A DNA stretch of 64,000 nt from positions 7,525-71,524 of the forward strand of contig CAVQFA010000005.1 of assembly GCA_963711735.1 (NCBI GenBank), read 5' to 3'. Shown here one piece after another: positions 20,649-41,228 of the stretch. Position 1 is the stretch's first letter, and each line of letters opens with the position of its first letter. The translations under genes and the position numbers were made by a program. The notes under the pieces were generated by a model, which saw only the letters and a program-made list of their open reading frames with translations, did no database searches and was not told the DNA's origin. Source of the stretch: Candidatus Gottesmanbacteria bacterium. GTDB taxonomy: Bacteria > Patescibacteriota > Microgenomatia > UBA10105 > UBA927.

Positions 20649-23600
20649 CTAATTGATGATCCACCAGTTGAAGCGTATGTCTTTGTCTATTGCCTGGTCG
20701 AGAGCAACGGTGAAGTACCCCTGCGTTGCATCATCTGCAGGTATTTTTGTTTTCACATATAAGACTTGGTTATTTGTAGATGACATTGGTGTGATATAGA
20801 TATATGTGTTTGTCGTTATTTGGGTATTATACGTTGTAAGCTCTGTTTGTCCCGCAGGAAGAATAGCTGATCCGACCGTTGCGTTGCTTGTGATAGTTGA
20901 TGACTGGCTGGCTGTTTGATCGTTTGCTCCGGCAATGACAAGCTTCGTAAATGATCCGGTGCCGGCAGATTCTACATTCCCACTGAACTTTGCCGTTCCT
21001 TTTTCATCGATTGATGCAACCGTCGTACCACCGTTACCCTTTATATTTAAAGCACCAAAGCCAACTGAAGGGGAGGAATCCACAAGAGATCCTGCCGGTG
21101 TGGAAGGAGATACACCCTCCAAATCAATTGTCACTGAGCCGGATCCTATAGGTGATATTGCATCAGTTGCTATGCCTCCGCTTGCCTTGAGATTTCCGGT
21201 TATTGCAAGATCGCCGCTTATAACTACACCACCCCGTATGGAAAGTTTGATAAGACCGTCTAATATATCGACGTCCGCAAGTTTATTTCTCTGGATGTAG
21301 AGTGTTTGATCCAGTGTCTCAATCCCGCTTAAAGATATGCGCATAATGCCGTCGACAAGGAGCGATCCTGCAATTGACGTTGCGCCAAAAGATGATTCTC
21401 CGAGAACTGACAGATTGCCGGTGATAGTGAGGTTCTCAGGTAAAGTAGCAGAGAGAAGCTCGTCGCTTGCCATATTTCCGGGTACTGCCGGATCAGACAA
21501 AAGGAGTGCAAGTAAAGCAGACGACGAAGCGTCAGGACTTGCCGGGATAGCAGGCGTCGGAGTGGGCGTGGGTTCGTTTACGGGTGTGACAATCTGCGTC
21601 TGAGCCGGCGGCGGAGTGTCCGATAATCCGGGCTGAGGTTCGGTCACCATGGCAAGAGCGACACTTTGATTCTCCTGCATGGATGCAAGCGCGGCTTCAA
21701 GCTCCTGAAATCTCGTGTCAACATCACCGGAGCCTGTCATAATCCGGTTGGCATAAAGACCACCGGAAACGGAGGCATTTTCAGAAGATAGCGAATCAGT
21801 TGTCAGATTACCCGCAACCGTGGCATTACCGCTCGCATCAAAAGATGCAGTCGGTTGCCCACCTGTACCGGTAATTTCCAGTTTTTGTGCATCACCAAGC
21901 GTAATTTTTATACCGGCGCTGTCTGATGCGACAGGGGAGACAATATCGGTATACAGCTGATTGATGGTCGCTACAGGTGAAGTGACAGATGATGGATTCA
22001 TGATTCCGCCGGCTTGTTCTATCACACTCAGTATGTAATCGTGAAGCGACTGACCGGCAATAGTCAGGTTTTCCGTCACAATATCCCCGGATGTGAGGGA
22101 TAAAGCAGAAAGCTGGCCGTTGACAGACGCAGACCCATCGACAAAAAGTTCTGAAACGCTTAACAGTCCGGCCTGCAGGCGGGAAGTGATGATGTCGGAG
22201 AACGCGCCGATTCTCGTTATAACCGACTGGGATACGATATCAGTAAGCGTATACGAACCGGAAGCAACTTTTGTGAGTGTCAGATTTCCAGTATCCGTAA
22301 GATACACGTCCGGATCATACCAGCTGTCCTTGATCATCATCATGACCTTCCCGACATAGGTGTTGTCAGGAAGCTTGAAACAGGGTTTGGCAGGATTGGT
22401 TCCGTCATCCTCAGGCCATGGTATGGTGTTTATGTCAGAAACGGGAGTACACCCGGAGTCATCCGGGACAAACTCCTCAAGAGCAATACCTACAGACTGT
22501 CCGGGTTTAATCATTTTTGCTGCATATCCCGGTATTGTTGACTGGGCAATCCTGTCATTAATAGCAATGGGGCCATTCCGTGAAGTGACAAGTGTCGGGA
22601 TTCTCCCGGTTAAAGCAACCGGTATAATCTCTCCTTCGTAATTTCTTCCTTCCCCGAGGGTGATTGCCGGTTTAGTAGACACAACTCCCAAAACCGATTT
22701 GTCCGTTCCCACTGCAGGACGGATCATGGAAACTTGGGGGTCTGACTCATCTTTCGTCGTCAGCGTCCCCGGGATGATCTTGAACCTCGCAAAGAAGTTT
22801 TCCGCGATGTCGATGGCACCGGCAAGGACAGCGGGAGTTAAGCGGAAGGCATCATAATCTGCAGTACTGGGACTGGTATTCGGATTTACAATCCTCATGA
22901 TACCTCTTGCCCAAAATGACGTAGCTCCTATTCCTGCGCTTGTATTCCCATATTGTGCCCACGAAGAAGTGAGAGATACATTACTATTCGTATAATTTCC
23001 GGTGTAGGCACTAATCCCAGTACAACTTGCAAGAGTTGTAAACTCGTACAAACCAAAATAAAATCCATCTCCTGTGGCAGCACCGGCTTTTGCATACGCA
23101 AATACATTGTATGTTCTTCCTGTTGTTACAGGAACACATTTTGAAGCTATTGTATAGCTAGTTGTTGTTGACATACTTGCTAAATGCTGAGTATTCGTAC
23201 CATTAACAGCACCGCTTGTCGCAACCGTAGGAGTTGCTCCGGAACCGCTGCCGTTCCAACCATCGGCAACACCTGTTGTGGCATCGGTATTGATTTCAAA
23301 CGAAGCGTTTGCTACCATACTCTCCGAATCACCTAAACCATTTACTCCTGTCGTTTGTACAATATCATCGTCAAATCTACCCGTGCCAATTACGTCGAGG
23401 GCGTAATACAAGGTCGATGTCCCGATGCCGACATTGCCATTTTGATCTATAAGGAACGGTGTTGTATCCCCGGCAACGTCATCTACTTTAAATGCATCTG
23501 CTGCTGCGGTTTGTTCGACATGCAACAGAGCTTCCGGTGCGCTATATCCGATGCCGACGTTACCACTTCCCATAACAGTCACATAATTGGTCGTTCCTTC

Positions 23601-40712: not shown

Positions 40713-41228
40713 TTATCCGGATGTCTTATAATTTACTTCAAACCAAATGAGAAATTGTTCTACGTCGTTTGTATAGTGACGGACGGTTGTTATGGCTGCG
40801 CCTTCCTGTTGGAGCGCTTGTTCAAATGCACCAAGGATTGAGATTTTCGATACTGCTTTTTTGGAGTGGGGAAGGACGTTGGCAATATCGGTAAATGGTG
40901 TCGATCGTGTATAGTTGTGTGCGGTGAGATACGTCCAAAAAATTCTCAGAGCCGATAGTCTGCGGTTGATAGTTGCTTCCGGTGTATGTGATACGGATTG
41001 GCTCTTTACATACGCAGTGATCGTTTCCTTGGAGATTGAAGTTACGAAGTCCTGTATGTTCTGAGGTTCAGTCGTTTCTACCCAAATTGACTTTGCTATC
41101 CATGTCAGAAAATTCCGAAGGTCAGTCAGATAATTTTTAATGGTCTTTTTTGAAGACCTTTTTTCGGAAAGAAATTCGGAAAATTCTTTTTCTAGTTTGG
41201 CTTGATAATAAAAGACATTAGACTCCAT
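40713..41228 (-). CDS. Tandem integrase-type SAM-like core-binding (CB) domains, as in the XerC/XerD N-terminal domain. Most likely the true N-terminus of the giant gene, separated from it by a 1-nt frame discontinuity at TAATTTTATG (40706-40715).
   Basis: Helix-1/helix-4 pairs match XerD: [16 protein letters not shown] ... [17 protein letters not shown] (compare XerD TLAAYRRDLSMMVEWL ... SARLLSAVRRLFQYL). A second copy, [16 protein letters not shown] ... [16 protein letters not shown], is split across the stop and the next ATG. No catalytic R-HxxR-Y domain follows. Confidence 0.55.

Follow-up and report, generated by a model that had tools for sequence, protein, structure and literature searches.

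A 64,000-nucleotide (nt) stretch of the Candidatus Gottesmanbacteria contig CAVQFA010000005.1 (positions 7,525 to 71,524; here called the window, in whose coordinates all positions are given) is filled on its minus strand, between 20649 and 41228, by one collagen-frame coding locus. The explanation that best accounts for all observations, to which we assign a probability of roughly 68%, is that this locus constitutes a single intact gene for a membrane-anchored, homotrimeric, glycan-binding attachment fiber. The locus as assembled is not one open reading frame (ORF), since the ORF list shows six large pieces distributed across three frames. However, ten one-base edits were sufficient to obtain a single frame of 6,861 codons, in which the sole stop is the terminal one. 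The original prediction of a single 20.6-kb gene, made from the DNA letters alone, therefore holds for the locus and for its continuous corrected frame but not for an ORF as assembled.

Reading frame of the fiber locus

The pieces of the locus, the corrected gene and the main cluster of frameshifts are as follows.

40713-41228, minus, ORF piece of 171 amino acids (aa)
35768-40708, minus, ORF piece of 1,646 aa
33577-37725, minus, ORF piece
24817-32598, minus, ORF piece
26120-30148, minus, ORF piece
20649-31673, minus, ORF piece of 3,674 aa
20649-41228, minus, whole fiber gene, 6,861 codons after ten single-base corrections; stop at 20649-20651, ATG at 41226-41228
30868-32539, minus, cluster of seven -1 frameshifts (sites 32539, 31703, 31263, 31219, 31085, 30951 and 30868); paralogous copies intact

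The Gly-X-Y frame was followed via the 9-nt phase of GGN codons. By this phase tracking, the frame could be traced from about 39202 down to 24804 without a gap, while its phase changed repeatedly. Nine phase jumps were located within the collagen region, each of them a single-base indel: one +1 shift (an extra base) at about 35881 and eight -1 shifts (one base missing in each), at 35029 and at the seven clustered sites listed above, three of which share an identical 91-nt context. The tenth frameshift, at about 40717 in a GG run, parts the 171-aa ORF from the next ORF. The longest uninterrupted G-X-Y stretches as assembled span 6,075 nt and 3,330 nt, and the GC content goes from about 46% to about 60% across 24 to 40 kb. 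Genuine stop codons between the pieces would have spoken against a single gene; the pieces were found to be separated by indels, and the collagen frame contains no stops.

Use of an alternative genetic code was considered and rejected, since translation table 11 gives long ORFs and the breaks are frame changes rather than stops. Plus-strand ORFs of 150 to 460 aa between 24700 and 39300 (e.g., 24793-26151 and 32601-33995) are artifacts that mirror the G-X-Y repeat, and they do not merit annotation as genes. At either end of the fiber gene, scans for promoters and terminators scored no better than shuffled sequence.

Domain architecture of the fiber

The stitched protein displays the predicted order of a cytoplasmic N-terminus, a single transmembrane (TM) helix, a beta-rich stalk, a collagen rod and a noncollagen distal part. 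Profile searches and structure prediction of the terminal parts, which had been proposed as a check, identified SAM-like domains, a domain of the mosaic adhesive trimer (MAT) type, a CBM4-like domain and a G2-type domain. Two relatives in the list below, L002 and P0006, are described further on.

40920-41189, minus, SAM-like domain 1 (integrase N-terminal type), cytoplasmic; Pfam PF02899, residues 14-103
40589-40835, minus, SAM-like domain 2; PF13495, residues 132-213, matched only after stitching, split by the frameshift at about 40717
40403-40465, minus, single TM helix; residues 255-275, preceded by KRRS
39914-40285, minus, MAT-type N-terminal beta-rich ectodomain; residues 315-438, from hhalign
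39251-39913, minus, beta-rich proximal stalk, from the translation; a Gly9 hinge follows at 39224-39250
24813-39250, minus, collagen-like region of 1,604 G-X-Y triplets (4,812 residues); residues 660-5474, with nine single-base frameshifts in the assembly
24813-29500, minus, distal repeat sub-array, about 18 units of 261 nt (87 aa), copy number uncertain
23373-24812, minus, collagen-to-stalk junction and GNVGIGTxxPxxxL-repeat stalk; residues 1-480 of the C-terminal region, homologous to L002 and P0006
22818-23330, minus, CBM4/9/22-like beta-jelly-roll, putatively glycan binding; first half of an AlphaFold model, from Foldseek
22260-22811, minus, Peptidase_G2-like intramolecular auto-chaperone starting with D-I-A-E-N-F; second half of the same model, with predicted autocleavage before Asp6142 (codon 22809-22811)
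20904-22259, minus, conserved post-chaperone segment with a Pro/Thr linker; alignable to about 35 homologues, AlphaFold confidence low to moderate
20652-20903, minus, terminal beta-sandwich of about 84 aa ending in FNWWIIN; AlphaFold pLDDT about 95, conserved across the family

The N-terminus had the expected place and length of about 250 aa but had been left anonymous; it contains the two integrase-type SAM-like domains (PF02899 and PF13495). The first half of the second domain is encoded in ORF 40713-41228 and its second half in ORF 35768-40708. PF02899 and PF13495 were the only Pfam matches, and no integrase catalytic domain follows them. An identity as an integrase or mobile element was rejected because the catalytic domain is absent; a TM helix and the fiber follow the SAM-like domains. 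Tyrosine recombinases (XerC/D and phage integrases) share the SAM-like domain with the fiber protein but not the C-terminal catalytic domain. The TM helix is the only segment with a Kyte-Doolittle score above 1.6 in the stitched 6,861 aa, in line with the prediction. It is preceded by 254 residues with the two SAM-like domains rather than forming an N-terminal signal peptide of the MAT style.

Using a family alignment, the ectodomain (residues 315 to 438) was found to match the N-domains of signal-peptide fibers with an hhalign probability of 98.5% (E = 1.8e-15). The comparison set included the Bdellovibrio bacteriovorus tail-fiber-domain protein P0046, possibly one of the 21 published MATs. 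The proximal stalk aligned with the stalks of family members and matched PHROG 1325 (E = 3.7e-7), and both its predicted sequence and the Gly9 hinge were present in the translation.

The count of 4,812 G-X-Y residues agrees well with the predicted number of about 4,800. Once the frame was corrected, the long Gly-X-Y run lay in the coding frame, as in bacterial collagen-like proteins. It had been described as uninterrupted; this holds only after the ten single-base corrections, and even then two in-frame interruptions remain, one of them at about 32877. The Y position is occupied by Thr (78%) or Ser (16%) and the X position mostly by Ala (37%), Pro (21%) and Ser (14%), and charged residues account for only 3% of the region. 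The array consists of three distinct sub-arrays with tandem periods of 261, 81 and 153 nt. The 261-nt units of the distal 4.5 kb are 92 to 100% identical at the DNA level, with a longest exact repeat of 566 nt. At 0.286 nm per residue, 4,812 residues correspond to about 1.38 μm. This agrees with the predicted rod of about 1.4 μm, but the value hinges on the assembled length of the array, which is uncertain given its near-identical 261-nt units. The claim that the protein is among the largest of Bacteria was too strong: collagen-free members of its family reach 5,631 aa, and collagen-like chains with as many as 2,000 triplets (6,000 aa) have been reported from prokaryotes (PMC11923368, citing Qiu et al. 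2023). The length of the fiber falls within this reported range and is not a record.

The noncollagen C-terminal region comprises 1,387 aa (about 1,370 had been predicted) and resolves into modules, although Pfam and NCBIfam gave no match for these residues. The collagen-to-stalk junction shows 63% identity to L002 and P0006. The stalk that follows carries several copies of the GNVGIGT motif, which conforms to the "capping loop" consensus of MAT fibers (V-G-G/N-π-x-x-P-x-x-x-L). Its sole PDB sequence match was the Bdellovibrio protein Bd2133 (8OND), a weak one (E = 0.056), and weak matches to tail-fiber PHROG 18345 and to cyanophage and pelagiphage fiber genes were also obtained. Residues 485 to 850 of the C-terminal region (protein residues 5959 to 6324) were modeled with AlphaFold at a pLDDT of 82.6. 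The first half of the model matched a CBM4-type jelly roll in Foldseek (E = 6e-6), as well as CBM-like domains of phage tailspikes, which places it in the CBM4/9/16/22 fold. The second half, the DIAENF domain, structurally matched the released C-terminal auto-chaperone of phi29 gp12. A profile built from the family alignment matched the phi29 gp12 chain (E = 0.0011), in an alignment that pairs the first residue of that chain (Asp in DFAEYF) with the Asp that opens the family motif, and it also matched the D4 chaperone of the tail spike Dpo31. Pfam Peptidase_G2 (PF11962) was matched at E ≤ 1 by 10 of the 28 aligned homologues (best E, 3.3e-5). The DIAENF domain thus combines the D-x-A-E-x-[FY] start motif with the Peptidase_G2 fold.

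No S74 chaperone was detected in the fiber protein, either as a PF13884 match or as an SDxxxK motif; the position held by the G2-type domain is occupied in relatives such as P0039 by an S74 chaperone (SDKRLK). Neither an S74 chaperone nor an adhesive tip stands at the very C-terminus, where MAT fibers carry one or the other. The terminal beta-sandwich had no significant PDB match (the best was the C-terminus of a Klebsiella phage depolymerase, E = 0.06), and an FNWWIIN-type motif is common to 29 of the first 120 homologues. A TNF-like fold was not matched in the modeled distal parts (residues 5959 to 6324 and the last 283 aa). What had been called a tail-fiber-like tip can now be described more specifically as a MAT-type stalk, a CBM4-like lectin domain and an auto-chaperone of the phi29 gp12 type. 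If the auto-chaperone is cut off, as is probable, the working tip is likely the CBM-like domain and not the C-terminus. Cleavage before Asp6142 is a conjecture by analogy with the phage proteins.

Evidence for an intact gene and competing explanations

The sequence data show the domain order, the membership of the fiber in a large family built in this way and the existence of intact, collagen-bearing relatives. The stitched N-terminus (residues 11 to 575) is colinear with residues 11 to 610 of the intact proteins P0039 and P0088 across the frameshift at about 40717 (E = 7e-41). The second SAM-like domain is complete only when two ORFs are joined, and relatives carry the same collagen-to-stalk junction in a single frame. 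All three observations argue for one gene.

We infer that indel errors in a long-read assembly account for most or all of the ten frameshifts and that the cell carries an intact gene. For every frameshifted repeat there is a near-identical, intact sister copy, which either retains the missing base, in a CCCC, GG, GGGG or CTCTC run, or reveals the extra one. Despite nine indels in 14.4 kb, no Gly codon was lost in 1,604 triplets and no in-frame stop was gained; this pattern fits indel-type sequencing error but not neutral decay. The neighboring gene for leucyl-tRNA synthetase (LeuRS; 41830-44536, plus strand) is likewise split, into ORFs of 665 and 258 aa, by a one-base frameshift at about 43790 in the KMSKS region. 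A second assembly of the same organism (Logan, run ERR12037368, in short contigs) agreed exactly over a pilin gene, ArgRS, the 171-aa ORF and 1,429 C-terminal codons of the fiber. In that assembly, LeuRS is one 1,158-aa product that even carries ComEA domains (SLBB and HHH_3), while the fiber gene has a different, extra frameshift near 40253. Because LeuRS is essential, is frameshifted in the same manner and yet is continuous in the Logan assembly, and because the two assemblies differ in their indels, the indels were read as errors.

Several observations weigh against an intact, membrane-anchored, trimeric fiber. The gene is broken ten times as assembled. The frameshift at about 40717, giving the same 171-aa ORF, recurs in the Logan assembly and is thus either real or, if the assemblies share reads, a systematic error. 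Three frameshifts recur in an identical repeat context, which duplication of a real mutation could produce. The units of the array are up to 100% identical, so that the copy number as assembled is uncertain. With regard to the protein, the positive-inside rule is ambiguous, with three positive charges on either side of the TM helix, and the fiber protein itself stays below the Pfam thresholds for Peptidase_G2 (PF11962) and CBM_4_9. Unlike in the phage auto-chaperones, 540 conserved residues follow the G2-like domain. Finally, the structure models are monomers; the MAT-type stalk repeats and the G2-type fold are both trimeric in known homologues.

If the indels were real, the locus would be a recently inactivated pseudogene from which the full fiber is no longer made, perhaps leaving fragments (e.g., from the ATG at 40708). 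The ten frameshifts, the first of them seen in two assemblies and three of them identical in repeat copies, would be explained in this way, and the damaged appearance of LeuRS and of ComEC (with an in-frame TAG) could mean that the genome as a whole is decaying. However, neutral decay should produce several times more substitutions than indels, and neither a Gly substitution nor a stop occurred over 20.6 kb. In addition, the indels occur where the sequence is homopolymeric or of low complexity, other indels (including that in the essential LeuRS) differ between the two assemblies, and both assemblies have the 4.3-kb C-terminal part in the same unbroken form. We regard inactivation as unlikely.

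Slightly less probable still is an assembly artifact of length or continuity, in which the array was inflated, collapsed or made chimeric, shorter genes were joined, or the two halves were misjoined. The high identity of the 261-nt units (92 to 100%), the 566-nt exact repeat and the clustering of frameshifts amid long high-identity repeats are what such an artifact would predict, and the Logan assembly breaks on both sides of the array, on one side 134 nt into it. The flanks nevertheless belong to one architecture, as relatives (L002 and P0261) link the N-terminal domain and TM helix, the collagen, the junction and the C-terminal module within one contig or protein. The array is composed of three sub-arrays with periods of their own rather than one collapsed unit, and the gene lies inside a contig of 371,484 bp.

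A prophage or phage tail-fiber gene, as opposed to a cellular surface structure, is very improbable, even though phages share many of the parts: integrase-type SAM-like domains, tail-fiber PHROG and phage tail-fiber matches in the stalk, a phage-type auto-chaperone, tailspike-like CBM matches, and collagen-like fibers, which are common in phages (e.g., in the cluster L034, see below). The integrase catalytic domain is absent and an N-terminal TM anchor precedes the fiber. The neighbors are housekeeping genes (LeuRS, ArgRS, LepA, ComEC and pilins), with no phage structural genes seen in the window. A scan of IMG/VR with the C-terminal module returned no relatives, matches to phage records did not exceed 31% identity and covered no more than 20% of the query, and the family is widespread in genomes of Patescibacteria. 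The notion of a phase-variable contingency gene, with homopolymer slippage toggling the fiber and the frameshifts reflecting population heterogeneity, can practically be set aside: the indels do lie in short homopolymers and their state does differ between the two assemblies, but efficient slippage needs longer runs than the 2 to 4 bases present, ten lesions that all switch the gene "off" at once would make no sense as regulation, and LeuRS has the same type of lesion.

Relatives of the fiber

When the last 722 residues were used as the query, 4,019 cluster representatives were found at E ≤ 1e-3, 1,389 at E ≤ 1e-10 and 247 at E ≤ 1e-30. The named homologues of the fiber were from Shapiro-, Woese-, Levy-, Davies- and Nomurabacteria and the "Patescibacteria group". 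Members commonly begin with SAM-like or HTH domains and a TM helix, continue with the MAT-type N-domain and long GNVGIGT stalks, and end with a chaperone (S74 or G2) and the conserved tail.

Three relatives join collagen to the same junction. L002 (contig CAZHOQ010000031.1, 1490-13717), the only relative found by the scan of genome contigs, is one open frame of at least 4,076 aa with two MerR/HTH_17 domains, a TM helix and 852 uninterrupted triplets that lead into the post-collagen junction. Its contig is labeled "uncultured Gammaproteobacteria", which may reflect mis-binning. In L001, a single frame encodes at least 1,038 aa of G-X-Y and continues into this junction; here, the gene caller had chosen the wrong repeat frame and truncated the real protein P0006. 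P0261 is a complete protein of 3,060 aa in which two HTH domains and a TM helix are combined with 121 triplets and the same junction; it has a DIAERY motif and ends in FNWWIIN. Of 144 fetched representatives, 11 carried 10 or more G-X-Y triplets, usually 20 to 40 of them, so that the collagen spacer is a recurrent optional module. The fiber gene described here is the longest collagen version among the family members seen.

Inteins (Cys...VAHNT blocks) were observed in P0003, P0328 and P0367, directly after the "KLHVxG" end of the GNVGIGT repeats. PF14890 was recorded for the P0003 intein, and P0367 (5,631 aa) has at least five inteins, an unusual load for a surface-fiber gene. In a metagenome scan with the junction alignment, the generic NSGNVGIG pattern dominated and collagen runs were seen in only 1 of 80 loci. 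This locus, L034 (Ga0208362_1000032, 4552-20452), is a phage-like cluster that encodes a 2,252-aa GNVGIGT-repeat protein with G-(S/T)-S collagen-like proteins on either side, so that the collagen and GNVGIGT modules are separate genes and not fused. A search with the 136-aa collagen-stalk junction yielded no match at E ≤ 1e-5, the query being too short for 5.8 billion sequences. Literature searches returned nothing relevant on collagen-like proteins in the Candidate Phyla Radiation (CPR)/Patescibacteria and nothing on the architecture of this family. While the family was not found described in the searchable literature, long Thr-rich collagen, its stabilization by glycosylation, MAT fibers and G2/S74 auto-chaperones are already known.

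Comparison with known systems

The closest parallel is provided by the MAT fibers of B. bacteriovorus (Bd2133 and Bd3182), which have a signal peptide, about 1,000 aa and a length of about 55 nm (Caulton et al. 2024, PMC10769870). Both systems place the same homologous beta-rich N-domain of about 120 to 130 aa beside a membrane-targeting element, use the same capping-loop stalk repeats (with a weak relation in stalk sequence, E = 0.056) and have a mosaic distal part with autoproteolytic chaperone or adhesive domains, and both occur in a small bacterium that must attach to other cells. The fiber described here differs in its anchor, which consists of two cytoplasmic SAM-like domains and a TM helix, in its insert of 4,812 collagen residues, and in having a G2-type rather than an S74-type chaperone, followed by a conserved 540-aa tail.

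The original prediction had compared the fiber to Bacillus BclA. This comparison holds for the Thr-rich G-X-T chemistry only: both have GAT, GPT and GST triplets without hydroxyproline and an expected stabilization by Thr O-glycosylation. With BclA and other Thr-rich collagen-like proteins of bacteria or viruses, the fiber would also share a C-terminal noncollagen trimerization module and a role as a surface filament. The domain architecture differs, in that BclA is targeted to the exosporium, contains tens of triplets and ends in a C1q/TNF-like domain, whereas the fiber has 1,604 triplets, a TM anchor, a MAT-type stalk and, in the modeled parts, no TNF-like domain. With the Peptidase_G2 (PF11962) auto-chaperones of the phi29 gp12 pre-neck appendage and of Dpo31 D4, the fiber shares the domain-start motif D-[IFY]-A-E-x-[FY] and the position directly after a receptor-binding or enzymatic domain of a trimeric fiber. 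The phage domains, however, occupy about 160 aa at the extreme C-terminus, while here about 540 conserved residues follow and the Pfam threshold is not reached.

Proposed assembly and function

By analogy with phi29 gp12 and Dpo31 D4 (the auto-chaperone analogy being drawn from PMC13317679), the C-terminal module starting at DIAENF would trimerize first. Collagens fold from a C-terminal nucleus (PMC11923368), and the C-terminal trimer may likewise set the register of the stalk, from which the collagen triple helix would zip in the C-to-N direction towards the membrane. The auto-chaperone module would then probably be cut off before Asp6142, as its phage counterparts suggest, after which the CBM-like lectin domain would stand at the distal end of the fiber or close to it. 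The Thr/Ser-rich rod may be O-glycosylated, possibly via a sugar gene cluster at 1.6 to 16 kb of the window, since Gly-Pro-Thr repeats need glycosylation for a stable helix: (GPT)10 is helical only if Thr is glycosylated (PMC11923368). The N-terminal helix would hold the fiber in the membrane with the DNA-binding-type domains kept in the cytoplasm, and the rod would serve as a spacer of about 1.4 μm by which an ultrasmall cell reaches and binds glycans of a host cell or surface. The predicted attachment role is thus retained as the best reading, now for a putatively trimeric fiber with a candidate glycan-binding domain near its distal end.

The cytoplasmic end raises the question of what DNA-binding-type domains are for in such a protein. 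These domains are interchangeable in the family, being SAM-like in duplicate here and MerR/HTH_17 in duplicate in the collagen-bearing L002 and P0261, and the swap to a different fold suggests selection for a DNA-binding function over a particular fold. It is conceivable, although we consider it doubtful, that the protein acts as a transmembrane coupling device in which a glycan-binding rod is wired via the TM helix to the paired cytoplasmic domains. In this way, the nucleoid or incoming DNA could be tethered to the site of host contact; the ComEA, ComEC and pilin genes lie next to the fiber gene. Alternatively, the protein could sense contact as a membrane-bound transcription factor of the ToxR type, which proteolysis might release. 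The ToxR/CadC regulators offer a functional analogy only; they too have a DNA-binding-type domain in the cytoplasm at the N-terminus, then one TM helix and then an extracytoplasmic domain, but there is no homology, and the extracellular part here would be a 6,500-aa fiber.

To our knowledge, little beyond type IV pili is known of the means by which cells of CPR/Patescibacteria find their hosts and hold on to them. As an extracellular attachment fiber, the product of this locus would be a concrete and testable candidate for this function, belonging to a family of about 4,000 cluster representatives that appear to be membrane-anchored, phage-fiber-like trimeric adhesins, in this case with a lectin-like domain towards the distal end. 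It unites three known modules that are not known to have been reported together, namely, predator MAT-type fibers, Thr-rich bacterial collagen and phage auto-chaperones. If the assembled length is real, the spacer would extend the reach of the cell by about 1.4 μm, several cell diameters, and the fiber would offer a natural example in which to study how a very long triple helix without hydroxyproline folds, as well as a clear target for cryo-electron tomography.

Genomic neighborhood

The fiber gene is surrounded by three pilin-like genes and the genes for a TPR protein, LeuRS, ComEA, ComEC, ArgRS and LepA. LepA is at most 75% identical to anything else, and its named nearest relatives are Patescibacteria and Gottesmanbacteria. 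The bacterium is placed in the Patescibacteria (CPR), probably in the Microgenomates group. Nothing viral was seen around the fiber gene, and no tRNAs were found in the window. The frameshift in LeuRS sits just upstream of HGLVIKDGAKMSKSKGNVV. Further features are listed below.

18300-20448, plus, three pilin-type genes with N-terminal methylation motifs (type IV pilin/type II secretion system G-like), convergent with the 3' end of the fiber gene
16156-18210, minus, TPR protein, a neighbor in the window upstream of the pilin-type genes
45459-47405, plus, ComEC as two same-frame ORFs, with a Competence and then a metallo-beta-lactamase domain; TAG at 46356-46358
1645-16202, sugar-modification cluster with four GT2 glycosyltransferases, an NAD epimerase/dehydratase, two DegT-type aminotransferases, a hexapeptide acyltransferase and a methyltransferase

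Either a natural split of the gene or a substitution would explain the TAG in ComEC. The window also encodes two proteins of the PMT_2 type (protein mannosyltransferase-like), the second at 47380-48879 (about 47.4 to 48.9 kb). Together with the sugar cluster, they are candidates for O-glycosylation of the Thr-rich fiber or of the pilins. Three abutting or overlapping ORFs of 547, 284 and 418 aa lie in different frames on the minus strand (3098-6448). They had no Pfam match and may represent another large gene broken by indels.

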